The notes: generated by a model not told the origin, from the sequence alone. A stretch of DNA of 64,000 bases from Clostridiales bacterium (GCA_012841635.1 DUUJ01000001.1:159-64158), one strand, 5' to 3'; counted from the stretch's first letter, positions 24,194 to 48,181 are shown. Program-made: numbers and translations.

Positions 24194-24204
24194 GGAGGGT
24201 AATC

Positions 24205-27569: not shown

Positions 27570-27748
27570 GTATTAAAATATATATATTGATTCTTTTGCA
27601 ATGTTATTCCATATTAATTATATAAGCTTCTTCCGTAATTTTTGTATCAAGCTTTAATAATACATTTTTCTTTATGAGCCGATATTTTGTATATAACGGA
27701 GATTTTTTTGTTTTTTTGCCGTTTTGTAAATAACGCTTAATTTCTGAC

Positions 27749-27777
27749 TTGATTTTTTTGTGTTTTTTAGGTATAAT
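27749..27777 (+). promoter_or_regulatory. promoter of SBP paralog 2
   Basis: TTGATT, 17 nt, TATAAT; a duplicated copy of 25890-25918. Confidence 0.55.
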
Positions 27778-27868
27778 ATTCTTTATAACAGCATATTATT
27801 ACAGAGCTTTTTATAAAGTAAAGAATCTGTTAATGCGCAAATATAACATATCTTGTAAGGGGGATATT

Positions 27869-29641: not shown

Positions 29642-30775
29642 TTATATCTTAACAAGCTTCGCGCGATAGAGCAAAGTTTCGTGGGAGTCAACTACCGGGC
29701 ACATGTAATCGCTCTTGATTCCGATGTTTTCTCCGGTAAAGACGTCCGTCATATCAAATCCGTATCCGGAGGAGGCGGGAACGCCGGCGTCGAAGAAATA
29801 GAGCGGCACCTTGGCTTTGTGATCGCTCATGTTGAAGAACGCGAAGGCGTATTCGTTGTCAGCGAGCATCTTCACCAGAACTTTGCAGCGGTTGTTCCAG
29901 GGGTGAGTCGTCGCAACAAAGGGCGGACGCACGTCGGGATCCTGGTTTATCGCGATCAGATCCTTATTCGTCAGCAGCGCTTTTGCGGCGTCGGACATAT
30001 TGCGGACATCGCAGCCGATCATGAGCGGAGCCGAATACATGCACCAAAGGACAAACTGCATCTTATAGTCGATATCGTTGCAGCCGGTGCTTCCGACATT
30101 TCCTTTGCCGTACATTCCGATAGTCAGCATATCAATGTCGTTGAAGCAGTTGGGAGCCGAATAGCAAAGCTTGTCTATCTGGCTTCCGGCAATTTCGGTA
30201 AACGACTCAAAACTGTCGTTGATATCGTAGGTAGAGCGATACATGTGGGCGCCGGTCGAGCGGATCCAGCTGTGAACATCATCTACGCCCCAGTTGCAGG
30301 CGGAGAAGAGGATATCGCGTCCGCAGGCGCGGAGCGCCATGCCCATGCGTCTGTAAAGCATAGGACCGTTTGCCGTTTGCGGCTTGAAGCAGAAATCGTA
30401 TTTTAGGAAGTCAACGCCGTATTCGGCAAATGTCTCGGCATCAAGGAATTCATAGTCAAAGCTGCCGGGATAATCGGCGCAGGTGCGGACGCCGGCGCAG
30501 GAATACATTCCGAACAGCAGTCCCTTTGAATGGACATAGTCGCTGACATACTTCATTCCGTTCGGAAATTTTTCCTTGCACGGGACGATTTTCTTGGTAA
30601 CGGGATCGCGTTCATACTCGCTCCAGCAGTCGTCGATTACCAGATATTTATATCCGGCTTCGAGCAAACCGTTTGCGACCATCGCGTCGGCGGTTTCCAT
30701 AACGACCTTTTCGTTTATGGAGGCACCGAAGGTGTTCCAGGTGTTAAAACCCATTGGCGGCAGCATTACGTTCAT
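29642..30775 (-). CDS. alpha-galactosidase, glycoside hydrolase family 27
   Basis: Start moved to MNVMLPPMGFNTWNTFG (GH27 PPMGWNSWN motif) with an AAAGAGG RBS. YLVIDDCW and FLKYDFC motifs. Confidence 0.85.
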   Translation of the reverse strand: MNVMLPPMGFNTWNTFGASINEKVVMETADAMVANGLLEAGYKYLVIDDCWSEYERDPVTKKIVPCKEKFPNGMKYVSDYVHSKGLLFGMYSCAGVRTCADYPGSFDYEFLDAETFAEYGVDFLKYDFCFKPQTANGPMLYRRMGMALRACGRDILFSACNWGVDDVHSWIRSTGAHMYRSTYDINDSFESFTEIAGSQIDKLCYSAPNCFNDIDMLTIGMYGKGNVGSTGCNDIDYKMQFVLWCMYSAPLMIGCDVRNMSDAAKALLTNKDLIAINQDPDVRPPFVATTHPWNNRCKVLVKMLADNEYAFAFFNMSDHKAKVPLYFFDAGVPASSGYGFDMTDVFTGENIGIKSDYMCPVVDSHETLLYRAKLVKI

Positions 30776-30824
30776 GATTAATACCTCTTTTATTTGATAA
30801 TTCAGTTGCTTTGTTATTTTATAG

Positions 30825-31322
30825 TCATTCGTTGAAAACGAGCACAACAGCCGCGAAAATCAGGAAAAGGAGAGTGGCTGCCGTGGCGATGATTCTCAAT
30901 ACGTTTTCAAGCCGCGTGCGATTTTTGAATATCCGCGCAAGAAGGAGGAAAATCAGCGTTCCCAGCGCGGTACCCAGAGTATTTGTTATCAGGTCGGTTA
31001 TATCGGTTACTCCGACGCCGAGGATGTATTGGAAAAGCTCCAATACCGCGCTGAGTCCGAAGCCGGAAAGTATCGAATATAAAGGTTTTACGCCGAGCAG
31101 GCTGAGATACAGACCGAGCGGGACGAATATAAGTATATTGTCCCTGACCTCGGCGAAATGACCGGTTGTTTCTATGTCGTAATAAAACGGAATCAGGTTA
31201 ATTTCGCGCTGATAGCCTAAATTTAGGCGGAAATCAAGCTTAAACAGGATAATCCATATCAACACCAGGAGATAAACCGAAAGAAGGATGATTGTAAATG
31301 TTTTCTTATTCTTTTCTGTCAA
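30825..31322 (-). CDS. VanZ family membrane protein
   Basis: 165 aa, 4-5 TM segments; NILIFVPLGLYL and ELFQYILGVGVTDITDLITNTLG are VanZ-like. Confidence 0.75.
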   Translation of the reverse strand: MTEKNKKTFTIILLSVYLLVLIWIILFKLDFRLNLGYQREINLIPFYYDIETTGHFAEVRDNILIFVPLGLYLSLLGVKPLYSILSGFGLSAVLELFQYILGVGVTDITDLITNTLGTALGTLIFLLLARIFKNRTRLENVLRIIATAATLLFLIFAAVVLVFNE

Positions 31323-31461: not shown

Positions 31462-32544
31462 TTATTCTGCGGTAAGACCCGAACGCTCAATTCCCTGAAC
31501 AAGGAACTGCTGGCCGAACAGGTATACGATTATTAGCGGAGCAATAATCATGAGACCGCAGGTATTTCTTATAGCCGCGACATACAGGTTTTGACCTGCA
31601 TACTGAGTGTCGAGTGACTTCGGAACCGCTACAACGTCGGGCATCAGTTTTATTCCTTCGGTGGTAAAGAATATCTCCGTATAGAAGTTATCCGTCCACT
31701 GCCATGCAAATACAAAGAGGAATATTGTGATCATCATCGTAAAGGAGTTCGGGATGATAATTGCCCAGAAGGTGCGGTAAACCGAATAGCCGTCGATGTA
31801 GGCAGATTCTTCCAGCTCGTTGGGGAAGCCTTTGAAGAACTGACGCATCATGAAGATGTAAAGTCCGTTCTTGAAGCCGAGTCCCGTCATAGAGAGGAGC
31901 GCCAGCGGCCAGAAGGAGTTATTGAGGTTGAGCGAGGTAAACGGGAGTATCTTGGGCAGGTGTCCCAGAACCTTGCCGAACAGCTTGATATCGCCGCCGC
32001 CAAGGAGGTTAAAGATGCCGAAGATATCGAAGTAGCGGAACTTCATGAACATGGAAAGCTGCAGCGTCTGATGCGGTACTACCATCGTGAATATAACGAT
32101 GAAGAAGAGCAGCTTATTGCCCTTGAAGTTGAATTTTGCAAATCCGTAGCCGATTATCGTACATATCAACGTTTGAGTAAAGGCGCAGAATGTAGACAAT
32201 ATAAACGTATTGAACAAGGCCTGGAAGTAGAAGTTGTCGTTGATAATTGCCCGATAGGTATCGAGTGTCGGATATCGCGGAATCAGCTTTACCGTAACAT
32301 CGACGAAGTCGTTCCTGCTCATGAATGATGAGGAAACCTTCGCGAAGAAGGGGTAAAGGATGACATAGGAGATACCGATAAGGAATACGGTGCGGAAGAT
32401 AACGAAAACCGTGTGACCGAGGAAACCGACGTTAAGATATTTAATCTTCCATCTTTCCCATCTTGACGTTTTCACATAGTCCGTATTATAGACTTCCTTA
32501 TCTCTCCTGCGGACCTTGGTATCGGAGGCAGCCGTGTTATTCAT
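31462..32544 (-). CDS. carbohydrate ABC transporter permease (LplC-like)
   Basis: EAA-type loop ESAYIDGYSVYRTFWAIIIP; 6 TM segments. Confidence 0.85.
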   Translation of the reverse strand: MNNTAASDTKVRRRDKEVYNTDYVKTSRWERWKIKYLNVGFLGHTVFVIFRTVFLIGISYVILYPFFAKVSSSFMSRNDFVDVTVKLIPRYPTLDTYRAIINDNFYFQALFNTFILSTFCAFTQTLICTIIGYGFAKFNFKGNKLLFFIVIFTMVVPHQTLQLSMFMKFRYFDIFGIFNLLGGGDIKLFGKVLGHLPKILPFTSLNLNNSFWPLALLSMTGLGFKNGLYIFMMRQFFKGFPNELEESAYIDGYSVYRTFWAIIIPNSFTMMITIFLFVFAWQWTDNFYTEIFFTTEGIKLMPDVVAVPKSLDTQYAGQNLYVAAIRNTCGLMIIAPLIIVYLFGQQFLVQGIERSGLTAE

Positions 32545-32558
32545 TTTTCATTCCTCCT

Positions 32559-33545
32559 TTAATCACGTCTCTGATAGAAGATGTATCCGGAAATCACTGC
32601 TGCAATCGCGGCGACTATCAGGATAACTATAAGGAAGTATATCCATGACATCGCGGAGCTTACCACGTTTCCTCCGGCCTGGTTATAAACATCACCGATG
32701 TATGTCATAACCCGGTTGGTTGAGCTTGTAAAGCTGTCGATGACGGTATAGACGGTGTTGACGAGAATCATCGGAGAGACCATCGGGAAGGTGATCTTCC
32801 AGAAGGTTTCCCAGGTGGTCGCGCCGTCTATCGCGCAGGATTCATAGATGGCGGGGTTGATAGACTGAAGACCGGCCAGGAATACAAGCATCTGAACGCC
32901 GGCGCGGTTGATTATGTTATAGATGTTGTTGATCATCTGTGTAACATATGAAACCATGCCGCCGCCGATTTTCATAGTCTGGAACAGCCAGCTGATATCG
33001 GTCATCGATACTATTTCGGTAACCGCGCTGTTTTCGGTTCCGGTTTCAATCGTTTCCGAGGTGTTTTCCATATACTCAAGCAGGGTGTTGCCTTCGTCGA
33101 TACGAGCGACAAGACCGGTGTTGAGTATGACCGGGATGAAGAATATGGCGCGGAACGCGGCGCGTCCGAACATATCCTGGTTCAGAAGAACCGCCATGAA
33201 CAGAGCGAAGATGACTATCGCCGGGATATCAAACAGCAGCTGCTGGACACCGGATGTCAATGTCTGCACAAAGCTCGGGTCAACGAAGAGAGCTTCCTGA
33301 TAGTTCTCCCAGCCTACGAAGGTGAGGCTGTAGCCTCCTCCCTGAAGGATGTTGATCTTGTTGAAGCTGTACTTAATAGAGTCGAGTACAATCGGAAAGT
33401 AAATTATTACAAGTCCGATTATAAACGGCATTACAAATACCCAGCCGGCCCGGGCTTTACGCGCTGCCAGCGAGGCGCCCCTTCTCTTCTTTTTCGGGGC
33501 AGCGGATACAGTTTTATTCATTGGTATATCGTGCTCCTTCCTCAT
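32559..33545 (-). CDS. sugar ABC transporter permease (LplB-like)
   Basis: ESCAIDGATTWETFWKITFPMVSP loop; basic N-terminal tail typical of LplB-type permeases. Confidence 0.85.
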   Translation of the reverse strand: MRKEHDIPMNKTVSAAPKKKRRGASLAARKARAGWVFVMPFIIGLVIIYFPIVLDSIKYSFNKINILQGGGYSLTFVGWENYQEALFVDPSFVQTLTSGVQQLLFDIPAIVIFALFMAVLLNQDMFGRAAFRAIFFIPVILNTGLVARIDEGNTLLEYMENTSETIETGTENSAVTEIVSMTDISWLFQTMKIGGGMVSYVTQMINNIYNIINRAGVQMLVFLAGLQSINPAIYESCAIDGATTWETFWKITFPMVSPMILVNTVYTVIDSFTSSTNRVMTYIGDVYNQAGGNVVSSAMSWIYFLIVILIVAAIAAVISGYIFYQRRD

Positions 33546-36500
33546 CCTACTCGAATGAACTGCAGAGCTTCGATGGTCTGACCTTCAACCGTAACATTGA
33601 AGCTGTTGAAGTTGAGGTAGAAGACAACACCGTTGGAATAGCTGACTTTTGCAACAGTTCCGAGAGCGGTTGTATACTTGGTCTTCTCGTATTCTTTGGG
33701 AGCGTCTGCTTCTTCGGCTGCGGCGTCTGCTTCTTCGGCGGCAGCATCGGCTTCGCCTTCGGCAGCGGCTGCGTCATCGGCAGCGGTTTCTTCGGCGGCG
33801 GCTTCGGCAGCAGCAGCTTCAGCCTCAAGGTCAATGCCCAGCTCAGCAGCTTCCTCAGCGGCTTTACGTTCTTTAAGAGCAGCAGCTCTTGCGGCTTTCT
33901 CTTCCTTCTTGGCGAGAGCTTCGGCTTCTTCCTGAGCTAAGAGATCGGCTTCGGCCTTGTCGGCAGCGATTTCGTCGTCTGTCGGGATTCGCTCGGCATA
34001 AAGGAATTCGCAGCCTTCGAGTGTCGCACTCTGGCAATCCTTAAGAGCATCATTCAGTATGTTATAATATTTTATGAGGTCGTCGAACCAGATTTCATAA
34101 GATACGGAATAGTATCTCGAAAGGCGCCAGTCTTCTTTCAGCTTCTGGATATTCTGATAGCTCAGCAGGAAGTAAGGCGATGCGCCGCTCTGGATTATCT
34201 TCAGCATCTCATATCTTATATCACCGGCTTCGTTTGTCGGAGTTCCGGCATACTGAACATAACCGTGGAGGATCATGCCCATGAACGGCACCGGCTGGCT
34301 GGAGTAGTAATACAGCGAGCTGTCAAGCGACATATTAAGGATGTGGTCGGCATATTTCAGAGCATAAGCGTTGCCGCAGTCGATCATGAGAGAACCGTAA
34401 TCGGCTTTGATTTTGTCAAAGAGGTCTATGGTAAACTCTCTTGCGTCTTCGCGGTTGTAGGGATCTTTCTTGTCGAAGTCGGAGTTCAGGTCGGAGCCGA
34501 GCGTCGAGACTGAGATACCCATATGATTCAATTTGCCGAACGATTTGTTGAACTTCTCATAAAGTTTGGTGTATACCGAGGGAGATATGGCAACAAGCCA
34601 GGTTCTGCGGTAGGTCTGTTCAACGGAGTCATAGCGGCGTTTGGTGGTATAACGGTTATCGATGGTCTTGATGGCGTCGGTGCGGTGGCTGAAACCGTCT
34701 ATAAGACGTGTGCCGGAAACATAGGCCAAGTCAAAGTCGGGATAGACGGAAATCCCTTTGGATTTGGCATAGTCTATCAGTTCATTGAAGCCTCTGTTGC
34801 CGCCCGCTTTTCTTTCAAACTTAACACGGGTCGGAATGGTGAATTGCATACCGCCGTTGTAGTATCCGGTGAGACGATAGATGACGTTCTTAATGCCGGA
34901 AGCGGCAAGTTCGTCGGTCATCGTCTGGATATCCTCGAAAGTGGTCAGCGGGGTCTTAACCATAACCGGAATCGAAAGAATCGTTGTCTTTGTATCGATA
35001 ACGCCGAAAGTCTCAAGATACAGAGGAATATCACCGGAGGTTCTCGCGGAATCGAGCGGGACAAGGTCGCCCTTGTTTACGAGGTAATCGCGGTAGGCCT
35101 TGGCCATGCCTTCCCAGGAAACCGAGTAATAATCCTTGATGTTGTTTTCTTTCGCCTTGTTTTCGTCGGTCAGCATAATATACTTAATTCTGTAAGAACC
35201 GGTATATTTACGCTTGGAGACGACCGTCCAGGTTGCGTTCTGTCCGACCGAGATAGATTCAGCCAGGTTATAGCTGTCCTTCGGACGCGGATAGAACTGA
35301 GTATAAACGGTTGCGTATTTGTGGAGCGCGCCGCCGTGAGAGGTGGTGATATTCGCCATGGCGTCGCCCTCGGTGATGATTGCGAGGTAGCCGTGATCTT
35401 CATCCAGCGAAGCTTCGTTGTCGACTTCAACTTCTACTTCTTTGCCGGTATCATCAACGGACATCTCGGTGGTTTTGTACTTCACCGTTCCTCTGGCGTT
35501 TTCAACAACGCCGTATACGGGAAGTCTCATCGGCTGCTGATGCGCGCCGCTGATTTCGTGGTAGGCAAAGTCCTGACCGTAGATCTTACCGGAAATCGTA
35601 AGGTTCTTTCCGGCGAAATCTTCGAATCTGACAATCGAGCCGGAGCCGTCCGGAATGAAGGTGTAACCCTTATTCAGATACGAACCGCAGCCGATATACG
35701 GCAGGAACTGGATATAAGTGAGCGAATAGTGGGATTCGTCAAAACGAATTCCGTTAGCCGGGAGTCTGACCTCAAGTCCGTCGTCCTGGAGGCGGTATTC
35801 GAGCGCGAGCTTGAACATCGCAGGCGCGGTTCCGGAGGCGGTATATTCGGTCATCTGATGGTCATAGTCGAGCTCGGAGTAAGAATACTGGGTGCAGTAT
35901 GTCTTGACATAGGACTCGATGAGGTTGACTTCACGCTGTGAAGCGTAGGGGTCAAAGACGTAGACGGCCATCTTGTTGGTGATCGGGAAGGTAGCTTGAA
36001 GCTCCTTGATACCGCGGACCGTAAGTTTCGGGTCAGCCGGGTCTTTTAAGGTATAGAACGCGCTGATCTTCTTGAGAGCGGTTTCATCGGTAATTAAGGA
36101 AAGAATCTGTTCCTCGAAACGGGACTTTTCGATAAGTCTCGGAATGAGCGAACGGGTTTCTTCTTTACCTATGGTATATTCAACGCGGATACCGTTCTTT
36201 ATATTCTTAACATAAATCTGCTCTCTCTTTGCAGCTTCGATGTAAGAATAATAGTTCTTTTCCTGATCGTTGTCGGTAAACTTTATGATTACCTGCGAGA
36301 GCAGCTGAGACTTTGTATCATCCGAGCCGGTCGTCGTGGCTACATCATAGGGGTTTGTGAAGAGGATCTGGCCGCTCTTCTTATTCTTAAGGGCGACCTC
36401 TCCGGAATATTCTTCATAATAAAGCTCATAGTTATCGTTGCTCTGTTTGAGCACCATTGCTTCAAGCTTCTGTTCCGGAGTATTATACACCTGGGTATAA

Positions 36501-36652
36501 TAATCGATTATCTTCTTTTCTTCTTCCTCGCCCTTCTTAGCCGGAGCAGCGTAAACCGGAAGTATTCCGACAGAGCTTAATACTCCGACAACGGAAATCA
36601 CGGAAAGGAAGACTGATACCAATTTTATGAATTTGTTTTTCATATCGGTCAT
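33542..36652 (-). CDS. 1036-aa secreted protein of unknown function (possibly DUF5696-type, hydrolase-like), Ala/Glu-rich insert near the C-terminus
   Basis: N-terminal signal/anchor (KLVSVFLSVISVVGVLSSVGILPVYA). Long uninterrupted ORF whose start overlaps the upstream gene's stop region. The family assignment is from memory of similar operons, not from a search. Confidence 0.7.
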   Translation of the reverse strand: MTDMKNKFIKLVSVFLSVISVVGVLSSVGILPVYAAPAKKGEEEEKKIIDYYTQVYNTPEQKLEAMVLKQSNDNYELYYEEYSGEVALKNKKSGQILFTNPYDVATTTGSDDTKSQLLSQVIIKFTDNDQEKNYYSYIEAAKREQIYVKNIKNGIRVEYTIGKEETRSLIPRLIEKSRFEEQILSLITDETALKKISAFYTLKDPADPKLTVRGIKELQATFPITNKMAVYVFDPYASQREVNLIESYVKTYCTQYSYSELDYDHQMTEYTASGTAPAMFKLALEYRLQDDGLEVRLPANGIRFDESHYSLTYIQFLPYIGCGSYLNKGYTFIPDGSGSIVRFEDFAGKNLTISGKIYGQDFAYHEISGAHQQPMRLPVYGVVENARGTVKYKTTEMSVDDTGKEVEVEVDNEASLDEDHGYLAIITEGDAMANITTSHGGALHKYATVYTQFYPRPKDSYNLAESISVGQNATWTVVSKRKYTGSYRIKYIMLTDENKAKENNIKDYYSVSWEGMAKAYRDYLVNKGDLVPLDSARTSGDIPLYLETFGVIDTKTTILSIPVMVKTPLTTFEDIQTMTDELAASGIKNVIYRLTGYYNGGMQFTIPTRVKFERKAGGNRGFNELIDYAKSKGISVYPDFDLAYVSGTRLIDGFSHRTDAIKTIDNRYTTKRRYDSVEQTYRRTWLVAISPSVYTKLYEKFNKSFGKLNHMGISVSTLGSDLNSDFDKKDPYNREDAREFTIDLFDKIKADYGSLMIDCGNAYALKYADHILNMSLDSSLYYYSSQPVPFMGMILHGYVQYAGTPTNEAGDIRYEMLKIIQSGASPYFLLSYQNIQKLKEDWRLSRYYSVSYEIWFDDLIKYYNILNDALKDCQSATLEGCEFLYAERIPTDDEIAADKAEADLLAQEEAEALAKKEEKAARAAALKERKAAEEAAELGIDLEAEAAAAEAAAEETAADDAAAAEGEADAAAEEADAAAEEADAPKEYEKTKYTTALGTVAKVSYSNGVVFYLNFNSFNVTVEGQTIEALQFIRVG

Positions 36653-36676
36653 AATTTTTCTCCTGTTTCTTTCCGT

Positions 36677-38851
36677 TTACAACCGGTACGATATTTCGGT
36701 CACTATCGCGCCTATAAACGAGACTATCTTGGTGATAAGTCCGGTAAAGAGCAGGATAATGAACATTATAAATGCCATGCCGATTATTGTTCCGACTGAG
36801 GTGAGTATGTTTTTGCCGAGTGTGTAGTCATGCGTGGTCATCATTCCGGTGAAGATCAGTATAGCCATCCATACATAAGCAAAGGTGGTAAGCAGGGTGA
36901 CTACGTTGCCTTCGGCGAGGGTAACCATGTGGGTCGCGATGACTGACGGTATAATAAGCAGCGGAAGCGGGATAACCGAATAGCAGGTCGCTATGAAGAT
37001 ATCCTTGAAGCTTCCTTCGCCGTCGAATAGCGTTGTAAGACACCAGTTCGCGGTAACCCAGAGCAGCAGCGGAACCAGAAGACCCGTCGTCTGAATGAAG
37101 ATGGAGGCATATCCGCCGTGCGGGTTGAAAAGGTAGGACTTACCGATCGCCTGATAGGTGAAGGTAAGAATCGTAACAGCAAGCCAGAAGAAAGCTGCGC
37201 GAACCGAGCCGCGGCGCTCATGCTTGAGGTCCCAGAACCCGTCGAACGGATGGAAGATCACATGGAATCCATAGAGAACTTCCTGCCAGAAAGTGCGTCT
37301 TTCGGTGGAGACGGCGACTCTTCTGTTTACCCTTCCAGCGAATTTGAAGAACTGGCTTATAAGTATTGCGCCTATGACAACAAGAATCGGTATGAGCCAA
37401 ATTATCTTGGAGACAACGTCTTTACGCCACATCTTGAAAGCTGCGGAGTAATTTTCGGTCTCGTATGCGAATTTGTAATACTTCATCGCGCCTTCCCAGT
37501 CGCCGGCGCGATAAAGCGCCTTTCCGATGCCGACGTAAGCGGCGTCGAAATTGGAGTTGCGCTGGAGTATGGCCTGCCAGTCATCTACTGCCTTGTCATA
37601 CTTACGGTCGTTGTTGTTGCGAAGCGCGTTGATGAGGATATCGCCGTATTCGGTGCGGTTATAGACAGTGAAGCTGTCGCGGGTCTTGTCGAGGAGCAGG
37701 AGTTTGTCACCCTGATAAGCGACCGCTTCGATGGAGCTGATGTTGCCCAGCTGCATTCCGGTGTCGCCGAAGGTGAAGAGCATCTTGCCGTCGCCGTCAT
37801 AGGTGTAAACGCGGCTGCGCTTCTCGTCGATAATGGACCAGGTATTTTCCGGACCTATCGCAACGTCGATAATCTTTGACGCGCCTGTGGGAGTGTTGGT
37901 ATCGTATGCAATGCCGCGAACGCTGACTTCGCCGTTCGGAGCAAAGAAGCCGTTGCGGTGCATGATGTCGGCGCCCGAGCTGTTGAGCTTCTTTACCGGG
38001 GCGTAGTCGCCGGACTTGGACCGGATGGCACTCTGCTGCTGCCATTCCTCGATAGAGGAAGTGGTAACATAGATGAAGCCCTTATGGTCGATTGTGATAT
38101 TGTTAAACTCGGTGGATACGTTTTGAACCGAGAGAGCTCTCTGCTCTTCGGTCTGGAACTGTCTCCAGATTATCTGCCACCAGGAAGCGGTTACTTTCTG
38201 CGCGCCGATAAATCCGACGAAGGATCCGTCTGCGTTCAGCGAAATAACGCCCATGTAGGTGGTAGAGGAAATGACATATATACGGCCGGTCGAGTCGACG
38301 GCGCAGGCGACGGGCTTATAGATGCTGTTCGCCGGCATGACGTCGGATTTCGGCTCATGGATGATGCGCTTGAATTCGCCTTCAAGGTCGAAAACAACGA
38401 GACGGTTGTTTTCGGTATCGCAGACGAAGATCTCGTCGGTGGTGACATAGACGCCGGAGGGAGTGTTGAGGCTGTCCGGAACGCCCTGGTCGTTATTGAA
38501 TTCCTTTATGGCGAATTTATACTTGTAATATTCGTTAAGGACGACTATCCGGCTGTTGGCGCCGTCCGCGATGTAAACGTTCTTGTTCTGGTCGACGAAA
38601 AGATCGCGGGGGTCGTCAATCGGAGGGGCTATGCCCTTGCCTGTCGTCTTATCAATCTCAAGATCGGTGACGCCCATATAGACGGAGTCTATTTCAATTT
38701 CGGGGGTATATGCGTCCGGGGAAGCCATATCAAAACCGTCAACCGAGTAGGTATAGGTAAGATAGGATGCCGAACCGAACATCGAGATTGAACCCAACAG
38801 CATTACGGCGCAGAGGGCAGTCGCCGTGAAAATTGTGAATTTTCTTTTCAT
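36677..38851 (-). CDS. NHL-repeat beta-propeller / TPR / Yip1-domain membrane fusion protein
   Basis: Signal peptide. NHL-like blades (VYIADGANSRIVVLN, IFVCDTENNRLVVFD, GRIYVISS). TPR-like AYVGIGKALYRAGDWEGAMKYYKFAYE. C-terminal 5-TM Yip1-like region beginning YGFHVIFHPFDGFWDLKHERRGS. Confidence 0.7.
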   Translation of the reverse strand: MKRKFTIFTATALCAVMLLGSISMFGSASYLTYTYSVDGFDMASPDAYTPEIEIDSVYMGVTDLEIDKTTGKGIAPPIDDPRDLFVDQNKNVYIADGANSRIVVLNEYYKYKFAIKEFNNDQGVPDSLNTPSGVYVTTDEIFVCDTENNRLVVFDLEGEFKRIIHEPKSDVMPANSIYKPVACAVDSTGRIYVISSTTYMGVISLNADGSFVGFIGAQKVTASWWQIIWRQFQTEEQRALSVQNVSTEFNNITIDHKGFIYVTTSSIEEWQQQSAIRSKSGDYAPVKKLNSSGADIMHRNGFFAPNGEVSVRGIAYDTNTPTGASKIIDVAIGPENTWSIIDEKRSRVYTYDGDGKMLFTFGDTGMQLGNISSIEAVAYQGDKLLLLDKTRDSFTVYNRTEYGDILINALRNNNDRKYDKAVDDWQAILQRNSNFDAAYVGIGKALYRAGDWEGAMKYYKFAYETENYSAAFKMWRKDVVSKIIWLIPILVVIGAILISQFFKFAGRVNRRVAVSTERRTFWQEVLYGFHVIFHPFDGFWDLKHERRGSVRAAFFWLAVTILTFTYQAIGKSYLFNPHGGYASIFIQTTGLLVPLLLWVTANWCLTTLFDGEGSFKDIFIATCYSVIPLPLLIIPSVIATHMVTLAEGNVVTLLTTFAYVWMAILIFTGMMTTHDYTLGKNILTSVGTIIGMAFIMFIILLFTGLITKIVSFIGAIVTEISYRL

Positions 38852-38864
38852 ATGTAACCCTCCC

Positions 38865-39737
38865 TCAGTCTTTCAGGCCGGAGGTCGACATAGTTTCGAT
38901 GATGTTCGACTGAGTGATAACGAAAACCGTTATCGGAACGATCATCATCAGCACCGTCGAAGCAGCGGACGCGCCCGCACGGGCAACGCCTCCCGAAATG
39001 ATCTGGCTGATTGCATAGTTGAAGGTCTTGAGCTGCTCGGAGTAGATATAGATGGAGGCTCCCGAGTTCCAGAGTCCCTGGAAGGAATACACTATAAGCG
39101 TAAGCCAGGCCGGCTTAACCATAGGCATTGCAATATTCAGGAAGGTATAGAATTCGGAGGCTCCGTCGAGTCTTGCCGATTCAAGCACCGAGTCGGATAC
39201 AGAGCTGTCCATAAACTGCTTCATCAGGAAGAGACCCAGGGTCGAGCAGAAAGCCGGGACTATAACCGCAAGATAGGTGTCTATCCAGCCTAAAAGGGTC
39301 ATGGTGATGAAGTTGGTTATGGCGGAGACGGTGGTGTTGAACATCAAGGATTTGATGATCATTTCGAACATCCAGCCGCGGCCCGGGAAATCAATCTTCG
39401 AGAGCGCGTAGGCGCACATGGACGAGAGTATCAGATTTCCGAGGGTTCCGAACACCGAGATAAGAACGGTGTTGAATATGTAGCGGGAGAACGGCACCCA
39501 CGAGTCACTCATTAGAGTGAACAGGTCGGAGAAGTTCTGAAGCGTCGGACGAACGACATAAAAGCGCGGAGGGTACACGAAGAGCTCGTCGAAGGGCTTA
39601 AGCGACTGAAGTATGACATATAGCATCGGCAGGAACATGAACGCGCCCATAATTATCAGTATGGCGCTTATTCCTACGTCGCCTCCGACGGAGCGGTTCA
39701 GTACGACGCGATGTTTTCTTGTTCTTAATTTTGCCAT
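38865..39737 (-). CDS. carbohydrate ABC transporter permease
   Basis: ESARLDGASEFYTFLNIAMPMVKP EAA loop. Confidence 0.85.
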   Translation of the reverse strand: MAKLRTRKHRVVLNRSVGGDVGISAILIIMGAFMFLPMLYVILQSLKPFDELFVYPPRFYVVRPTLQNFSDLFTLMSDSWVPFSRYIFNTVLISVFGTLGNLILSSMCAYALSKIDFPGRGWMFEMIIKSLMFNTTVSAITNFITMTLLGWIDTYLAVIVPAFCSTLGLFLMKQFMDSSVSDSVLESARLDGASEFYTFLNIAMPMVKPAWLTLIVYSFQGLWNSGASIYIYSEQLKTFNYAISQIISGGVARAGASAASTVLMMIVPITVFVITQSNIIETMSTSGLKD

Positions 39738-39738
39738 C

Positions 39739-40734
39739 TTACTGACCTACCTTCGAAAGCAGCTTGTTAACCAACAGGTTTGCGCCGATCATTATAAGGA
39801 AGAGCAGCGTTGCGATTGCCGAGGCGTAACCGACCTCGAAACGCTGTCCGCCGTAGTCCTCAAGATGGTGCATGATGGTCCACGCGCTGTAGTTTACGGA
39901 CGGGAAGCCGGCAAGCGCGGTAACAATACCGCCGAAGCCGAACGAACCGGTGATTGACATAACGGCGCCGAAGAGAAGCTGCGGCTTCATCGACGGCAGG
40001 GTAATGAACCAGAGCTCCTGCCAGCGGTTGCGGACACCGTCGACAGCTCCCGCTTCATACAGCGAGCGGTCAACCGTCTGCAGTCCGGCAATGAAGCTCA
40101 GGAACGCAGTTCCAAGTGAAGTCCATAACGCGACTACGATACACAGCGGCATTACGAATGTTTCGTTTCTGAAGAATTGTATCGGAGTCGATATAAGCCC
40201 AAGGTAGATAAGTATACCGTTTACATATCCGTATGCGTCGCCCGAGAACATCGTCGCCCAGATAAGGTAGACGGCTCCGGAAATTGACGGCGCGTAGAAT
40301 ATGAGGGTTACAAATGCCCTGACTTTTGGCGCAAGTTCGTTTATAAACCACGCCATCATGAAAGACATCAGGTAGGAAGTCGGTCCCGTTATAGCGGCGA
40401 AGATAAGCGTGTTCTTTACGGCTATAACGAAGATATCGTCGTCAAGGAAGAGTCTTACATAGTTGTCCATGAAGACGAAATTAGGCCATTCAAGCATGTT
40501 GAATGTGGTAAAACTGAGTAAAAGCGAAAGCACGACCGGGATTACCGTGAATATGAAGAACAGGATCATGAACGGCGCTATCAAAGCATATGCTACTTTG
40601 TTGCGCTTCATTTCCTTCCAGGTCCATGCCGCTCTGCTCATATCGCCGCGGTTAACAGCGTGTTTTACAGCAGTAGCCGCTCCGCCGGACTGTTCGGCGG
40701 CAACGGTGGTTTTTTCGGTGTTTTTATCCGGCAT
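39739..40734 (-). CDS. sugar ABC transporter permease
   Basis: EAGAVDGVRNRWQELWFITLPSMKP EAA loop; 6 TM segments. Confidence 0.85.
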   Translation of the reverse strand: MPDKNTEKTTVAAEQSGGAATAVKHAVNRGDMSRAAWTWKEMKRNKVAYALIAPFMILFFIFTVIPVVLSLLLSFTTFNMLEWPNFVFMDNYVRLFLDDDIFVIAVKNTLIFAAITGPTSYLMSFMMAWFINELAPKVRAFVTLIFYAPSISGAVYLIWATMFSGDAYGYVNGILIYLGLISTPIQFFRNETFVMPLCIVVALWTSLGTAFLSFIAGLQTVDRSLYEAGAVDGVRNRWQELWFITLPSMKPQLLFGAVMSITGSFGFGGIVTALAGFPSVNYSAWTIMHHLEDYGGQRFEVGYASAIATLLFLIMIGANLLVNKLLSKVGQ

Positions 40735-40755
40735 TAACGATCCTCTCCTTCTTTA

Positions 40756-43731
40756 TTATTCGGCATTGGCGTCGCTGTCAGCCAAGCTCGGATCGACGAT
40801 CTCGCCTTCAGCGTTCTCAACAAAGCTGGTCGAATAGGATATCTCGTAGTATTCAAGGCCAAACTCCTTGCGCTTACGGGAGATTTCTTTGTTGATTTCG
40901 GTTATGTTGTCAAGCATTGATTCAACGGGGTCGGCATTATTGTTATAAGCATCCATGAATGCGAAGTCAACATAACGCGCGATGATGTAGCCGCCCGGAT
41001 ATTCCGGAACCGCGGCAAGATGCTGCATCTGAGCCTGAAGCGCTTTATACTCGGATGCCGTCCACGGCAGCTCGGCAAGAGCCTCCATGTTGGCGGTGTT
41101 GTATTTTGCGGCGGGTCCCATGACGGCGACAAGCTCGTTTGCATACTGAGCCTGAGGCTTGGCGTCGGTAAACCAGCCGATAAGCTTCCAGGCGGATTCA
41201 AGGTTCTTCGCGCCTCTCGGCATGACTACCGCGGATACGCCGGCGGGTGAAATGTGACTTACCGTTCCGTCATCTCTTTCCCAACCGAGTACAGGCACCA
41301 TTTCCCAGAGATTGGCAAGCTCGGAAGCATATACTATAAGGGTGTTGTAGGTGGTGTAGTCGACGATTCCGAGCGGCATCTCACCGGTACGGAAACGTGT
41401 GGGGAAGTCATAGGATACCGGGAAGCGGTAAGCGGTAAAGAGGTCGCAGATGGTTGAGAAGGCAGTAAGCGCAAGGTTGGAGTCAAGGTTGATGCGCTTT
41501 CCGTCATCGGCGTAAAGCTCGCCGCCCATCTGATACAGGGTGAAGATAGTTCCGCCGAGGTTGGACGGGAATGCAATATCCATCTTGTTGTTCTGAAGGA
41601 TCGGCAGGATGTTGAACATATCCGACCATGTATTGGGAAGATTGATTTCAAGCTCCGCAAATACATCCATGCGATAGAACATCATGCTGAAGGAGAGCGT
41701 TGACGGGATACCGTAAGTGGTTCCGTAAAGGGTCAGCGGAATCATTGCGGCAGGGCTGAACCTTGCCGTGACCTCGTCGAAGCCCTCGTAATCATTAAGA
41801 GGAAGAACGGCGGAACGAATAGCATAGTTGATGGTATCCGCCGAACCCAGGAAGGTGACGTCGGGACCGACGCCTGCGAGGATTGACGGGAGCAGTGAGC
41901 CGCCGGCGACGAGCTTGAGCTCGACTGCGACGTTCGACTCGGGAGTGAACTCATAGTCAATGAGCTGACGCAGGATCTGAGCCTGGTCGCGGCCTGCGGT
42001 GTACCACATGGTTACCGCTTCGTCGGATTGAACTTCGGATGTTGCTCCGATGGTGTTATAATCGCTGTAGAAGGAAGCGGCAAAGGTTCTTAGCTCATAC
42101 CACACCGCCTGATACCATGTGGCTTTGGCGCGCGGGAGCTTGGAGCCTACCTGCTGTACCGTGATATAGTCGAGCTCAAGCGACTGCTTCTGAGCGGTAT
42201 AAATCCAGGTTCCCAAAGTACCTAAGTAAGATTTGAGGTTTCCGAGGTTCTTGGCTAACTCGTCCTCGTCTCCCGACATGCGCTCGACAAGGTTTGCGAT
42301 GGTATCGAGCGTCGCGACGTTCTGGCCGCGTCCTTTGTTGATTTCGGCAAGATTGTTGGCTATTTCCCTGATAACCTTCGCTTCGTCCGCCATCGCCATA
42401 ATGGTTTCGGGGATAAGACGTCCGAAGTTATAGTCGCGGTATGCGTCAGGCGATGCGCCCGTGATCATAAGGATCTTGAGGTAAGCTGCGTTGAGGGTGG
42501 CAAGGCTGTCGGAAATCCTCGAAAGGATGTCAGCCATTTCACCCAGGTTAACTTCGAACTCAATGGTATTTTCGCCGGCTTTGAGAAGGAATTCGAAACC
42601 TTCGTGATAGCCGTCGTTAAGCGCGCATGACTGCCATGCGTCGTTATAAAGGAAACGGAGATAACTGGCTTCCTTGAACGGAACTTCGCCGTTTATGCGT
42701 ACCTGGCGGGACACATACATACCGGTCAGGATCTCCTGACGGTAACGGACGGCGATATTGTAAAGACCATCTTCGGGAACGGTCACAGTGTAACGGATCC
42801 ACTGTCCGACGGTTTCCCATTTGTCCGATCCGATGGTGTTCAGCTTTATGCGGCTGGCATCCTGCGGTTCGGTTATCGGCGAGCTGCGGTCATATATCGG
42901 ATATATAACCTGCTCTGAAGTATTGGTCGGGTTCTCTGCATTAATCTTGATCGGCTCCGCAAGAGTAACCTGCTTATATCCGGCGGCTTGGGCGGCTGCC
43001 AGATATTCTTCGTAAGTAGGCAGATTCACGACCGGAATGAAGCTTATCTTGCCTATTCCGACAGGTTCGCGGACAGCTTCAAGAGTAATCGTATGTTCGC
43101 CTTTTGTAAGATAGAATTCAAACGGTTCGACGATGAATCCGGTTGAATCGCAGGCGATATAGGTGCGCCATTCCGGAGTTTCGGCTTTGGTTGTGCGGAG
43201 ATCGTTTCCGGTGATATCGGTGCCAAAGACTCCGAATTCGCCCGGATATCGGTCGGCCCATACTTTGGTCATCTTAAGCGAACGGGCTTCATCAAACGGA
43301 ACTTTGCCGTCGATATAAAGCGAGCGCTCGATTGATGTTGCTTTGCCTTCGACGGGATAATACTCGATCTTGAAACAGTATTTTCCGTCGGACGGAACCG
43401 AGATCTTCCACGAAACCTTATCGGTTTCCGGAATGTAAAGGGCGGTGCGCCCTTCGAAGTTTTCGGTTTTTACTGCTGCGGTGGTATTTTCGGAATCGTA
43501 AGCCGTTCCGTCTACTTCACCGGCTGACGCTGCGTACGGATCATCCGCATGTTTTGCCTGATATTCGTTGTAGGAATCTGTGCCAAGCAGTTCCTTAACT
43601 TCTTCCAGGCTGCGCGAGAATGACGTCGTATCTGTTTCACCCGCCGCGTTTGACACGACCGGGAGAACACCGAGCAGCATAACCGCAACCAAGGAGAACG
43701 CGAGCATCCGTTTTGCTCTGGTTTTGTTCAT
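40756..43731 (-). CDS. giant (~990 aa) extracellular solute-binding protein with two N-terminal CBM-like beta-sandwich modules
   Basis: Start moved to MNKTRAKRMLAFSLVAVMLLGVLPVVSNA (GGAGG RBS at 43741-43745). Two internally repeated modules (SWKISVPSDGKYCFKIEYYP...FEFYLTKGEHTITLEAV and WIRYTVTVPEDGLYNIAVRY...FEFLLKAGENTIEFEV). The C-terminal ~550 aa are SBP-like. Confidence 0.75.
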   Translation of the reverse strand: MNKTRAKRMLAFSLVAVMLLGVLPVVSNAAGETDTTSFSRSLEEVKELLGTDSYNEYQAKHADDPYAASAGEVDGTAYDSENTTAAVKTENFEGRTALYIPETDKVSWKISVPSDGKYCFKIEYYPVEGKATSIERSLYIDGKVPFDEARSLKMTKVWADRYPGEFGVFGTDITGNDLRTTKAETPEWRTYIACDSTGFIVEPFEFYLTKGEHTITLEAVREPVGIGKISFIPVVNLPTYEEYLAAAQAAGYKQVTLAEPIKINAENPTNTSEQVIYPIYDRSSPITEPQDASRIKLNTIGSDKWETVGQWIRYTVTVPEDGLYNIAVRYRQEILTGMYVSRQVRINGEVPFKEASYLRFLYNDAWQSCALNDGYHEGFEFLLKAGENTIEFEVNLGEMADILSRISDSLATLNAAYLKILMITGASPDAYRDYNFGRLIPETIMAMADEAKVIREIANNLAEINKGRGQNVATLDTIANLVERMSGDEDELAKNLGNLKSYLGTLGTWIYTAQKQSLELDYITVQQVGSKLPRAKATWYQAVWYELRTFAASFYSDYNTIGATSEVQSDEAVTMWYTAGRDQAQILRQLIDYEFTPESNVAVELKLVAGGSLLPSILAGVGPDVTFLGSADTINYAIRSAVLPLNDYEGFDEVTARFSPAAMIPLTLYGTTYGIPSTLSFSMMFYRMDVFAELEINLPNTWSDMFNILPILQNNKMDIAFPSNLGGTIFTLYQMGGELYADDGKRINLDSNLALTAFSTICDLFTAYRFPVSYDFPTRFRTGEMPLGIVDYTTYNTLIVYASELANLWEMVPVLGWERDDGTVSHISPAGVSAVVMPRGAKNLESAWKLIGWFTDAKPQAQYANELVAVMGPAAKYNTANMEALAELPWTASEYKALQAQMQHLAAVPEYPGGYIIARYVDFAFMDAYNNNADPVESMLDNITEINKEISRKRKEFGLEYYEISYSTSFVENAEGEIVDPSLADSDANAE

Positions 43732-43744
43732 GGACTTTTCCTCC

Positions 43745-44350
43745 TGAAAAGAATTGGGGATGCCGGGTAAACAAAGTACCGTTTCCCGTAGTCGGCACCG
43801 GCTGCGTCTCATGACGGCCGGGAGCCCGGCGGACGGGAATTCCGCCTCTCCGGAGTTATTCCGGCTTCAGGGCAAGTCGGGATACGCTTTACAGCGGGAT
43901 TCCGCGGCGATCCGTGCGGGTCGGCCCCGCACGACGCCGTAAGGTCAGTTACAGCGCGCTTCAAGGGACGTGCTTTCAGCCCTTCAAGCCCATATGCCGC
44001 ATCATAATGCGGCAAATATGTCCTACGCTGCATACATGGTATGCTGCCCATACAAAACACTTGGCGTCGCAGACCGGAGACTTGACTTTTCCGGTCCGGG
44101 CAGCCAACCGTGTATGCGGCGTACCGTGCGCCGGCAGGATTTCCCTTCGGTAATTTGCCCTGTTGCTAAGTTCCACGGGTCATCCCCTCGGAACACCCGC
44201 AAAATCCGGTACTGCTGCTCTTAATGCAGCGGCGGCGGATTCACGGATGCGGAAATAACAGGCAAGGAACACAGCCCCGCTTCGGCCTGCCCGATCGTTT
44301 GCCGGGTAAGGAAGCCGGGTGCGTCCCGTTGATGATTATTCCCGCTTATT
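43745..44350 (-). ncRNA. candidate large structured RNA / ornate 5' leader of the giant-SBP operon (unclassified)
   Basis: ~600 nt, GC-rich, with no credible ORF in six frames. At least 14 hairpins or helices are readable by eye (listed in the findings). It lies between a minus-strand promoter at 44359-44387 and the operon RBS. Strand is assigned from context and is not certain. Confidence 0.45.
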
Positions 44351-44358
44351 ACTTAATA

Positions 44359-44857: not shown

Positions 44858-45814
44858 TCAATATTCAACACCCAAAACAGAGAGAACCGTTTTTGCGGCT
44901 TCCGCATCCGCCGAGTAGACAAGGCCGCTGCCGCAGGTGAAATATCCGCTGCCGTCGACGACTCCGACGGTAAATGAGGCGGTTTTGTCGACATGGACAG
45001 TCGAAGTGTAGCTTGATGTCTGTCCCGAGTTGTCGGCGTTTTCCACCGTCTGCGCTTCTTTGCAGGCGATATCGACGGTGGCTCCGCGGTCGAAGCCGTA
45101 AGCCGTCATCGAGGCTTCTGCGGTGCTGCCGGGGCTGATATAGCCGACTGTGGCAAGTCCTCCGCGGACAATATCCGAAAACGCGGTTACGAGTTCTGCG
45201 GTTTTTTCGCTGTCAATCAATTCCGCCGCGAATGTCATCTCAATCGAGTTATATTTATCTTCGTCGAGCACCGGGGGGATATCGACATCCGCCAGATCGA
45301 GCAGCGAGTATTCGAAGAACGGATTCAGCCCGGTCGGTATTATATACACCTTGTCGGTGCCGCCGATGTTGAAGTAGTAGCCGTCAAGCATCTTGTTGTA
45401 GTCGCCGATCTTGTAATTTCTCTCGGCGTCTTCAAATACCGCGGTGATGTCGAGATAGGGGGAAGCGAGACCGTATTCGGCGAAATTCTCTTTCGTTTCC
45501 TCGACCAGCCGGTTGGCTTTTATCTTGCTTATCGCCGACGCCATCGAGGCGGGGAGCTCGAATTTTACCGGGAAGGAAGGATCTTCGGTATACTGCCATT
45601 TATAGAGAATGTCGTCGAATCTGAGAGCTATCATTTCGCCGTTCAGCGTGTATTTTATCTCTTTTATTTTTGACGGGTCGTCGTCGGCTATCATCATGTC
45701 TCCCGCGGGAGCCGGGGGCGGCGCTTCGGTTTTTGTGAGAGCTCTGACGAGGAAATACCCGCCTATCAGCGCCGCCATTACAACGGCGGCGATTATCAGA
45801 TTTTTAATTCGCAT
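44858..45814 (-). CDS. DUF4340-like protein (N-terminal anchor), last gene of the GldG-type operon
   Basis: Single N-terminal TM segment (LIIAAVVMAALIGGYFLV). Position after a GldG-like gene matches the conserved ABC/ABC-2/GldG/DUF4340 operon. Confidence 0.6.
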   Translation of the reverse strand: MRIKNLIIAAVVMAALIGGYFLVRALTKTEAPPPAPAGDMMIADDDPSKIKEIKYTLNGEMIALRFDDILYKWQYTEDPSFPVKFELPASMASAISKIKANRLVEETKENFAEYGLASPYLDITAVFEDAERNYKIGDYNKMLDGYYFNIGGTDKVYIIPTGLNPFFEYSLLDLADVDIPPVLDEDKYNSIEMTFAAELIDSEKTAELVTAFSDIVRGGLATVGYISPGSTAEASMTAYGFDRGATVDIACKEAQTVENADNSGQTSSYTSTVHVDKTASFTVGVVDGSGYFTCGSGLVYSADAEAAKTVLSVLGVEY

Positions 45815-45835
45815 TTTAAGAATACCGAAAATCCA

Positions 45836-47317: not shown

Positions 47318-48181
47318 TTATGACCAGCGGCGCTTTTCGACGGACTGAACCGTGAGTACCATGAAAACCGAGCAGACGGTGATATAGTAAACGACGGCGG
47401 TGATATCGAAAATACCGAACACGAAGTTATCAAGCCTTGACCAGAACGACAGGGCGTTGAGAGTTTTTGCGAACAGACCTTCAAAGCGCGCGCTTCCGGT
47501 GAAATAAAAGACGGCGAGGATAAGCTCAAGTATCGCTGCCGCGGCAAAAGCCGTCCAATAGCTCTTTGTCATATAATATATGATCAGAGCCAGGATAAGT
47601 ATCACAACGGCGAAAGATATGTATGACGCCGATGCGGCGGACGGAATCAGTGATGAAAGCGAACTCATCATATATATGACCAGCATCGCGCCGAAACTGA
47701 TGACGGCGGCTATCAGCTGGCTTTCGGTCAGGCTCGACATGAACTCGCCGACCGCGATAAGCGACGCTCCGAGCAGGAAGAAGCCGACCATGGCTCCGTA
47801 AGCCGAAACAAAGCTCACCTTTCCGTAAAACGACATGATAATCGGATAAACGCACATTACGGCGCAGGGGATGGCAAAGACCGTCAGAGCCGCGAAGTAT
47901 TTGCCCAGCACTATCTCTTTTACCGAGATAGGCAGCGAATAGAGCAGCTGGTCGGTTTTCGAGTGGCGTTCCTCCGCGAAAATGCGCATTGTAAGGATCG
48001 GAACCACGAACAGAAGTATCATCGAGATCGAGCCGAGGGAATATTCAAAATTCGGATACCCCTGGCGGAAATTGGTTGCGGTTATAAAGATGCCGGCTAT
48101 CAGCAGCACAAAGGCGATAAATATATAACCGACCATGCCTGAGAAAAAGGTCCGGAGCTCTTTGCGATATACGGCTCTCAT
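47318..48181 (-). CDS. ABC-2 family transporter permease
   Basis: 287 aa, 6-7 TM segments; start overlaps the ATPase stop by 4 nt. Confidence 0.75.
   Translation of the reverse strand: MRAVYRKELRTFFSGMVGYIFIAFVLLIAGIFITATNFRQGYPNFEYSLGSISMILLFVVPILTMRIFAEERHSKTDQLLYSLPISVKEIVLGKYFAALTVFAIPCAVMCVYPIIMSFYGKVSFVSAYGAMVGFFLLGASLIAVGEFMSSLTESQLIAAVISFGAMLVIYMMSSLSSLIPSAASASYISFAVVILILALIIYYMTKSYWTAFAAAAILELILAVFYFTGSARFEGLFAKTLNALSFWSRLDNFVFGIFDITAVVYYITVCSVFMVLTVQSVEKRRWS

Follow-up and report, generated by a model that had tools for sequence, protein, structure and literature searches.

A rigidly conserved seven-gene block with a giant solute-binding protein, two permease pairs, an NHL-TPR-Yip1 protein and DUF5696: a putative unit for glycan capture and import in Clostridia and Bacilli

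We analyzed a stretch of 64,000 nucleotides from a Clostridiales bacterium (GCA_012841635.1 DUUJ01000001.1:159-64158), hereafter the window, whose minus strand carries an operon of seven genes coding for a giant solute-binding protein (SBP), two pairs of ATP-binding cassette (ABC) importer permeases, a protein combining NHL, TPR and Yip1 regions and a large protein of the DUF5696 family. The results point, with moderate confidence, to a surface and membrane unit for the capture, trimming and dual import of plant- or host-derived glycans that is inherited as a block across Clostridia and Bacilli; the substrate specificity, catalysis and assembly of this module are proposals drawn from sequence, structural models and gene context. 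In the list of open reading frames (ORFs) of the window, the seven genes follow one another between 31462 and 43812 in a tightly packed array:

40756-43812, minus strand: giant SBP gene as mechanical ORF, with the coding part at 40756-43731 (991 aa)
39739-40734, minus strand: permease A1, MalF/UgpA-like, 331 aa
38865-39737, minus strand: permease A2, MalG/UgpE-like, 290 aa
36677-38851, minus strand: NHL-TPR-Yip1 protein, 724 aa
33542-36652, minus strand: DUF5696 protein, 1036 aa
32559-33545, minus strand: permease B1, MalF-type with a long external loop, 328 aa
31462-32544, minus strand: permease B2, MalG-type, 360 aa

In transcription order, the spacings computed from the coordinates were 21, 1, 13 and 24 nt, a 4-nt overlap and 14 nt, which matched the gaps of 1-25 nt or overlaps described in an initial annotation of this DNA made from the sequence by eye. 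The mechanical start of the SBP gene at 43812 is not the real one, as the N-termini of the orthologous SBPs align at the methionine of an ATG located at 43731, 8 nt after an AGGAGG sequence, and translation from this biological start returned exactly 991 aa. The protein sizes of 991, 724 and 1036 aa and the end coordinate of 43731 given in the initial annotation were thus confirmed, and its domain calls were found to be right by Pfam, with one SBP_bac_1 domain, four BPD_transp_1 domains and the NHL, TPR and Yip1 regions of the 724-aa protein.

The conservation of the block was evaluated by a genome scan, in which 80 loci were analyzed out of at least 492 confirmed relatives, mostly metagenome-assembled genomes (MAGs) of Clostridia from guts, rumens and digesters. 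The seven genes were colinear, on one strand and separated by short gaps in 64/64 loci long enough to contain them, with identities of 44-92%, and the remaining 16 of the 80 loci lacked some of the genes only at contig ends. Since the order is maintained in every complete locus, the arrangement is far beyond chance. The identity of the DUF5696 protein to its window counterpart correlated with that of every other component (Spearman 0.41-0.62), and the median identities to the window proteins were as follows:

SBP: 47%
permease A1: 71%; permease A2: 74%
NHL-Yip1 protein: 57%
DUF5696 protein: 48%
permease B1: 63%; permease B2: 59%

More distant versions of the module were then compared. A tblastn search of plasmid and chromid records returned two DUF5696 genes at 26% identity. 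In Butyrivibrio fibrisolvens D1 a divergent histidine kinase/response regulator pair and a gene of glycoside hydrolase (GH) family 43 are followed by the SBP (977 aa), two permeases, NHL (498 aa), YIP1 (206 aa), DUF5696 (839 aa), two permeases and two small SBPs. In Paenibacillus cellulosilyticus a UgpC ATPase precedes the SBP (986 aa), which is followed by a first pair of permeases, YIP1 (719 aa), DUF5696 (757 aa) and a second pair of permeases. Each component of these two loci is a specific ortholog of its window counterpart, the A versus B permeases included. The recurrence of such operons in Clostridia and Paenibacillus, which had been proposed in the initial annotation, was therefore verified by gene-neighbourhood comparison, and the association is not specific to this genome.

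The same data bear on the simplest alternative, namely that two independent ABC importers and two unrelated passenger genes became adjacent by chance. The permease pairs are deeply diverged and each of them could work alone with its own SBP, as this explanation would require. However, the order and content of the block do not vary among the complete loci or, at about 26% identity, between Bacilli and Clostridia, and the genes are separated by only 1-24 nt or overlap, so that we regard a chance assembly as very improbable. The strict co-conservation of the seven genes, including the relatives at about 26% identity, supports the earlier suggestion of a single integrated and conserved unit over that of two transporters adjacent by chance.

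Signals predicted around the genes were also consistent with a single unit:

44843-44817, minus strand: strong terminator of the preceding operon, just upstream of the seven-gene promoter
44386-44358, minus strand: putative sigma-70 promoter of the operon, TTGACA, 17 nt and TATCAT with a TG extension, 11/12 hexamer matches in a consensus scan
31453-31424, minus strand: 13-bp stem-loop directly 3' of the last stop codon, with a T-poor tail, the probable operon end
31386-31358, minus strand: perfect TTGACA-17-TATAAT promoter ahead of a VanZ and GH27 unit

As the block shows its own promoter and its own stem, the seven genes are predicted to be one separate transcription unit with its own promoter and terminator, and the VanZ and GH27 genes to form a distinct downstream unit.

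The genes adjoining the module differ from lineage to lineage. Besides the two loci described above, the following neighbours were found:

Acetatifactor-type contig: GH43 and two small SBPs
Paenibacillus alkalitolerans: LacI, a small SBP and GH113
Cohnella nanjingensis: LacI, a small SBP and GH26
Paenibacillus catalpae: GH26 and GH113
Roseburia MAG: LacI, GH53 on both sides and a small SBP
contig from a sequencing run: GH43, a small SBP, GH35, LacI and GH42

A linked regulator, either LacI or a histidine kinase/response regulator, is present in the Lachnospiraceae and Paenibacillaceae versions. The small GH26, GH113, GH53 and GH35 proteins are devoid of signal peptides, and the adjoining small SBPs are lipoproteins. 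As these endo-acting enzymes are cytoplasmic, fairly long oligosaccharides are suggested to be imported. Overall, the gene content indicates that the seven-gene core is reused with interchangeable accessory enzymes, and the lineage-variable accessory genes appear to set the sugar specificity. In the window subfamily the flanks consist of heterogeneous housekeeping genes, and Pfam scans of the neighbours of the window operon showed no transcriptional regulator next to it. Apart from the window, VanZ and GH27 follow the module only in the related loci L001 and L002 and are a lineage-specific accessory outside the conserved module; the GH27 neighbour hints at alpha-galactosides or galactomannan as the substrate in the window.

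All four permeases scored above the Pfam cut-off for BPD_transp_1 (B2 with an E value of 1.2e-11). NCBIfam matches were all sub-threshold and associated A1 with UgpA and PotB, far under the equivalog cut-offs, and A2 with UgpE and MalG. EAA loops were present in 4/4 permeases, namely EAGAVDG...LP from residue 227 in A1, ESARLDG at 186 in A2, ESCAIDG at 235 in B1 and EESAYIDG at 245 in B2. The binding-protein and membrane features of a CUT1-class importer were found in the operon, with one family-1 SBP and, twice over, two BPD_transp_1 subunits with an EAA loop. Each pair is predicted to be a complete type I importer membrane dimer with its ATPase-docking loops intact. Comparison of the two pairs showed 38% identity over 58 aa for A1 and B1 and 22% over 279 aa for A2 and B2. 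These values indicate that pairs A and B are ancient paralogs; a recent duplication was considered and rejected on the basis of the local identity of only 22-38%.

The operon has no ABC ATPase gene; the window contains a single such gene (48178-49494), which is part of a neighbouring ABC-2/GldG-like operon. A linked ATPase was also essentially absent from the related loci, with an ATPase-like ORF in the flanks (up to 10 kb per side) of 3/80 loci, always on the opposite strand. Shared multitask ATPases of the MsmX type serve many such Firmicutes importers (PMC7658222, PMC5730181), and a UgpC-type ATPase gene lies directly upstream of the module in P. cellulosilyticus. The absence of an ATPase gene, correctly noted in the initial annotation, is for these reasons ordinary for this transporter class.

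The giant SBP was recognized by Pfam as SBP_bac_1 with an E value of 4.5e-16 (60.2 bits against a cut-off of 26). An AlphaFold2 model with a predicted local distance difference test (pLDDT) score of 84.5 showed, in order, an N-terminal signal or anchor without lipobox, two CBM35-like beta-sandwiches (residues about 70-233 and 260-395), a four-helix bundle (399-514) and a MalE-like oligosaccharide-binding domain (519-960). The window protein has a single N-terminal hydrophobic segment by hydropathy, and a lipobox is absent from most orthologs. The best Foldseek matches were the oligosaccharide SBPs 5ci5, 9xf5, 3uor and 5ysf, and the structures nearest to the MalE-like domain bind cycloisomalto-oligosaccharides, sophoro-oligosaccharides and maltodextrins. 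For the carbohydrate-binding modules (CBMs), the single-sequence Pfam match to CBM35 was sub-threshold (19.7 against 28 bits). A profile of the N-terminal 345 residues built from 26 orthologs matched the CBM35 of CITase (5x7g) with an E value of 1.9e-5 and that of CsxA (2vzp) with an E value of 0.015, other CBM35 and CBM6 modules being weaker, so that the "CBM-fused" label given to this protein seems reasonable. A literature search on CBM35 joined to an SBP returned nothing relevant.

The nature of the binding domain is also relevant to a second alternative, according to which the module recycles or remodels the envelope glycopolymers of its own cell instead of harvesting external nutrients. 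Window-type loci are flanked by housekeeping or envelope genes (NifS/IscU, AlaRS, VanY, SpoIIP) with no recurrent regulator or glycosidase, and the window itself encodes SLH-domain and VanZ proteins, as might be expected for an envelope function. The SBP domain is nevertheless closest to binders of dietary oligosaccharides, and the distant subfamilies are found in polysaccharide loci of the usual kind, where regulators (LacI or two-component) accompany genes for mannanase, galactanase or galactosidase. Envelope recycling is thus judged to be improbable, and import of external glycans is preferred.

Two permease pairs with one SBP represented a puzzle raised by the initial annotation. The window contains four further SBPs outside the operon:

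26007-29359, plus strand: two tandem orphan lipoprotein SBPs, Pfam SBP_bac_1, lipobox AVSCG, 91% identical to each other
51411-54620, minus strand: two tandem orphan lipoprotein SBPs, Pfam SBP_bac_1, lipobox FVSCG, 88% identical to each other

These proteins, which had been proposed as orphan SBPs, were shown to be real lipoproteins arranged in two tandem pairs of 88-91% identity. They represent two recent tandem duplicates that flank the operon on both sides. Pfam scans of the main ORFs of the window detected no further BPD_transp_1 permease outside the operon and none beside the orphan SBPs. In two of the related loci (L056 and L067) small SBPs directly follow permease B2. The statement of one SBP for two pairs therefore holds within the operon but is probably incomplete, as small lipoprotein SBPs adjoin the module in other lineages. 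Separate small lipoprotein SBPs would probably resolve the puzzle, and the two at 26007-29359 are candidate partners of permease pair B in the window. Orthology of the Butyrivibrio small SBP with the window orphans was considered and was not supported by the sequence comparison.

The 724-aa protein following pair A showed clear matches to both Yip1 (PF04893, 46.1 bits against a cut-off of 28.6, with the full profile covered by residues 529-697) and NHL (43.4 bits against a cut-off of 20 in Pfam). Sequence matches in the PDB included the NHL domains of Thin, PknD and TRIM71 (E values from 4e-14 to 1e-9) and also TPR proteins. Its layout comprises a signal peptide, an external propeller and TPR region at about 70-475, a transmembrane helix at 480-498 and a multi-pass Yip1 domain at 529-697, within which hydropathy predicted four to five hydrophobic segments. 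The NHL propeller and TPR region are thus predicted to be displayed on a Yip1 membrane domain. The fusion is absent from Lachnospiraceae and most Paenibacillaceae, where two individual genes code for NHL (about 490 aa) and Yip1 (206 aa).

The YknWXYZ system of Bacillus, in which the Yip1-family protein YknW is reported to modulate the assembly of an ABC transporter (PMC4887032), was the only precedent found for a scaffold role of a Yip1 protein, which by analogy may apply here. The two systems share a Yip1-domain membrane protein genetically coupled to an ABC transporter; in contrast, YknYZ is a MacB-type exporter with a membrane fusion protein and the Bacillus system is devoid of a propeller/TPR ectodomain, an SBP and a glycan context. 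Literature searches on Yip1 combined with NHL, a permease or an SBP gave nothing relevant, and neither NHL nor Yip1 appears in a paper on the Butyrivibrio transcriptome.

The 1036-aa protein, left without annotation at first, was assigned to Pfam DUF5696 (PF18952) with an E value of 2.9e-149 (498.9 bits against a cut-off of 25.6). NCBIfam returned no match for it. The protein consists of an N-terminal signal or anchor with one hydrophobic segment, a beta-sandwich, a (beta/alpha)8 barrel, an insert and a conserved C-terminal beta segment of about 45 aa. The AlphaFold2 model, calculated with 50 homologs, had a pLDDT of 79 and a predicted template modeling score (pTM) of 0.75, with a long helix and a disordered Ala/Glu-rich stretch at 892-986. 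Foldseek searches of this model against the PDB returned the GH129 structure 5opq as best hit (E value 2e-26, target TM 0.67), followed by GH129 NagBb 5wzq (4e-20), GH101 EngBF and SpGH101 (about 1e-12) and several GH36 and GH31 entries (about 1e-10 to 1e-9), all at about 10% identity. A three-domain fold with a (beta/alpha)8 barrel is common to the model and to GH129/GH101. The same search in a viral structure library gave nothing meaningful.

Sequence searches showed a different picture from the fold comparison. A PDB sequence search found no similar entry, the DUF5696 profile matched residues 293-360 of NagBb at a non-significant E value of 1.4 and hhalign of the DUF5696 alignment against the window GH27 gave no signal. 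None of the GH Pfam families was matched by 28 DUF5696 members, even at E values up to 10, in line with the earlier statement that no enzymatic annotation could be assigned. A full-text literature search for DUF5696 and PF18952, whose coverage leaves out most subscription journals, returned no paper, in agreement with the initial impression that functional study of these operons is absent.

Residues D335, D361, D725, R734, N761 and N807 were invariant in an alignment across both subfamilies (26-30% identity). According to the secondary structure of the model, D725, N761 and N807 fall after the predicted barrel strands 4, 5 and 7, respectively. In GH129/GH101-related families the catalytic nucleophile is an Asp located after strand 4. 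The acid/base residue in these families lies after strand 6; D777 of the DUF5696 protein is conserved in the window subfamily and is not invariant family-wide. From the modelled fold and the conserved residues we infer that DUF5696 is a putative active retaining-type glycosidase, and the family is probably a new, predicted glycoside hydrolase family. The likeness to GH129 (NagBb, ZgGH129) and GH101 (EngBF, SpGH101) involves an N-terminal beta-sandwich, the (beta/alpha)8 barrel and a C-terminal beta domain, with E values from 2e-26 to 1e-11, GH36 and GH31 being more distant fold relatives. Differently from these enzymes, DUF5696 has a membrane anchor or signal, a variable helical insert and an obligatory linkage to ABC permeases.

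A profile search showed that the family comprises 5515 clusters at 50% identity with E values up to 1e-3 and 3066 with E values up to 1e-30, and the lengths of many members fall within 1200-2545 aa. No extra Pfam domain was detected in four homologs of 1839-2545 aa. In the five homologs inspected (P0288, P0278, P0266, P0249 and P0247, the fifth being 1455 aa long), the extra length consisted of an Ala/Glu/Lys-rich helical insert that follows the catalytic module and precedes a conserved end of some 45 residues, corresponding to about residues 890-986 of the window protein. Its length is 0 in Lachnospiraceae and Paenibacillaceae, about 100 aa in the window and about 1500 aa at most. The insert may act as a spacer through the cell wall or S-layer. 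Such a huge length variation remains odd.

These properties could also be explained if DUF5696 were a catalytically inert, glycosidase-shaped binding or scaffold protein and the module bound and imported glycans cut by other enzymes. The pairing of the module with chemically unrelated accessory glycosidases in different lineages, the lack of GH family matches by sequence and the helical insert, whose variation between 0 and about 1500 aa is suggestive of a structural spacer, would all fit an inert protein. On the other hand, Asp, Asn and Arg residues are invariant at 26% identity, and such residues are usually lost in inert homologs. In addition, D725, N761 and N807 are positioned at the predicted barrel strand ends, where glycosidase active sites lie. 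An inert role is accordingly considered rather unlikely, and a catalytic DUF5696 is retained in the proposed mechanism.

According to this mechanism, the CBM-like modules of the SBP would hold a polymer or a long oligosaccharide at the membrane surface, where DUF5696 would cleave or trim the glycan. The giant SBP would feed permease pair A, and separate small lipoprotein SBPs, which in the window would be the unlinked orphans, would feed pair B. The NHL-TPR-Yip1 protein might scaffold the assembly, a trans-encoded ATPase of the MsmX/UgpC type would power both pairs and cytoplasmic glycosidases, GH27 in the window, would complete the degradation. The "capture, processing" function suggested in the initial annotation is supported by the CBM35-like modules of the SBP and by the glycosidase-like fold of DUF5696, but for physical integration of the parts, co-conservation is the sole evidence.

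Several observations weigh against a glycan capture, trimming and import unit. Sequence methods place DUF5696 in no GH family, and its catalysis and catalytic residues are predictions based solely on fold and conservation. The same conserved catalytic core is associated with glycans as chemically different as mannan, galactan and arabinogalactan, which is awkward for a substrate-specific hydrolase. No glycosidase or regulator recurs beside the module in the 80 close loci, where the neighbours are housekeeping genes. Finally, the link between pair B and the orphan SBPs derives from adjacency in other lineages, and the small SBP of Butyrivibrio shares only about 25% identity with the window orphans.

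A more far-reaching, and in our opinion doubtful, extension of the proposed import unit is that the seven proteins form one surface complex, a Gram-positive equivalent of the Sus-type "utilisome". DUF5696, as the first member of a new glycoside hydrolase family and held on the NHL-TPR-Yip1 scaffold, would hand its products directly to pair B without a classical binding protein, the CBM-bearing SBP would serve pair A and the insert would span the cell wall.

The region upstream of the operon was then investigated. A GC-rich leader of about 620 nt (43732-44357, minus strand) extends from the promoter to the SBP start, and the 619 nt submitted to folding gave a predicted RNA structure of -289 kcal/mol, with a z score of -7.5 versus shuffled sequences. 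An Rfam scan of the window leader returned sub-threshold chance matches only. Among the related loci, nucleotide conservation of the leader was detected solely in the closest relative, L001, at 75% identity. ORFs inside the leader are short (21-84 aa), and the related loci contain no conserved small ORF between the upstream element described below and the SBP gene. Some MAG bins with unlikely labels carry the module, namely L021 (Methanocorpusculum), L020 (Selenomonadaceae) and L043 (Bulleidia); the small ORFs in the leader of L021 are identical to those of the Oscillospiraceae locus L024, an indication of mis-binned contigs and not of true hosts.

The gap upstream of the SBP gene is long in the window-type subfamily (median about 760 nt). 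In 58/80 loci plus L081 this gap contains a conserved element of about 70 nt, in one copy each and always on the operon strand, at 460-800 nt upstream of the giant SBP start (L003-L081; for example L006:2369-2458 and L007:2350-2428). It consists of two TTTGTGCA repeats about 45 nt apart, with an invariant GTAGAAAA between them, and the 3' repeat forms the dyad TTGTGCA-N3-TGCACAA. The element was not detected in the window itself. It may act as an operator for a regulator encoded elsewhere or as an alternative promoter.

Other genes of the window close to the operon were annotated as follows:

30825-31322, minus strand: VanZ-like membrane protein, Pfam VanZ
29642-30847, minus strand, with a probable ATG near 30775: cytoplasmic GH27 alpha-galactosidase without signal peptide, Pfam Melibiase_2 (E value 1e-59)
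44858-49494, minus strand: neighbouring four-gene operon coding for an ABC ATPase, an ABC-2 membrane protein, a GldG-like ABC_transp_aux/DUF7088 protein and DUF4340
56268-57293: BNR sialidase-like gene

The mechanical GH27 ORF overlaps VanZ by 23 nt. The region 12636-25278 is rich in glycan-related genes, coding for a GH95 fucosidase, a CBM9-like protein, an SLH-domain protein and a radical SAM/SPASM enzyme, and also contains a sulfotransferase and a glucuronyl-esterase-like protein.

Among known systems, the module resembles the CUT1 importers of Firmicutes that share an MsmX/MsmK/UgpC ATPase, such as those of B. subtilis (PMC7658222, PMC5730181), with an SBP_bac_1 gene followed by MalF-like and MalG-like permeases with EAA loops, no ATPase gene and a binding domain of the MalE-like/oligosaccharide type. 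It differs from them in its two diverged permease pairs, in an SBP of about 1000 aa that in most members is not a lipoprotein and carries two CBM35-like modules and a helical bundle, and in three further conserved extracytoplasmic modules, the propeller, Yip1 domain and DUF5696, embedded between the pairs. Polysaccharide utilisation loci of Lachnospiraceae and Sus-like systems of Bacteroidota encode together the capture, extracellular cleavage, import and cytoplasmic finishing of glycans. The Lachnospiraceae and Paenibacillaceae versions of the module likewise include regulators and glycosidases; unlike such Gram-positive loci, however, the module has a fixed seven-gene core with interchangeable enzymes, its window version is devoid of a linked regulator and, in contrast to the Bacteroidota systems, no SusC/SusD homolog occurs here. 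ABC glycan import itself is known; what appears to be new is the accessory set of this locus, which is rigidly conserved and previously undescribed.

Firmicutes rely on ABC-based glycan uptake when competing for fibre in guts, rumens and digesters, and its surface organisation is far less understood than that of the Bacteroidota Sus systems. The module is widespread, occurring uninterrupted in hundreds of Gram-positive genomes, rigidly conserved and apparently unstudied. Cultured and sequenced hosts exist, including Butyrivibrio fibrisolvens D1, Paenibacillus cellulosilyticus, P. catalpae and Cohnella nanjingensis, so that the questions raised here are directly testable. Characterization of the module would probably define a new glycoside hydrolase family, give the first nutrient-uptake function for bacterial NHL-Yip1 proteins and explain why two permease pairs travel together. 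It would probably also provide a marker by which a reusable import unit, with its specificity set by the neighbouring enzymes, could be recognized in genomes.

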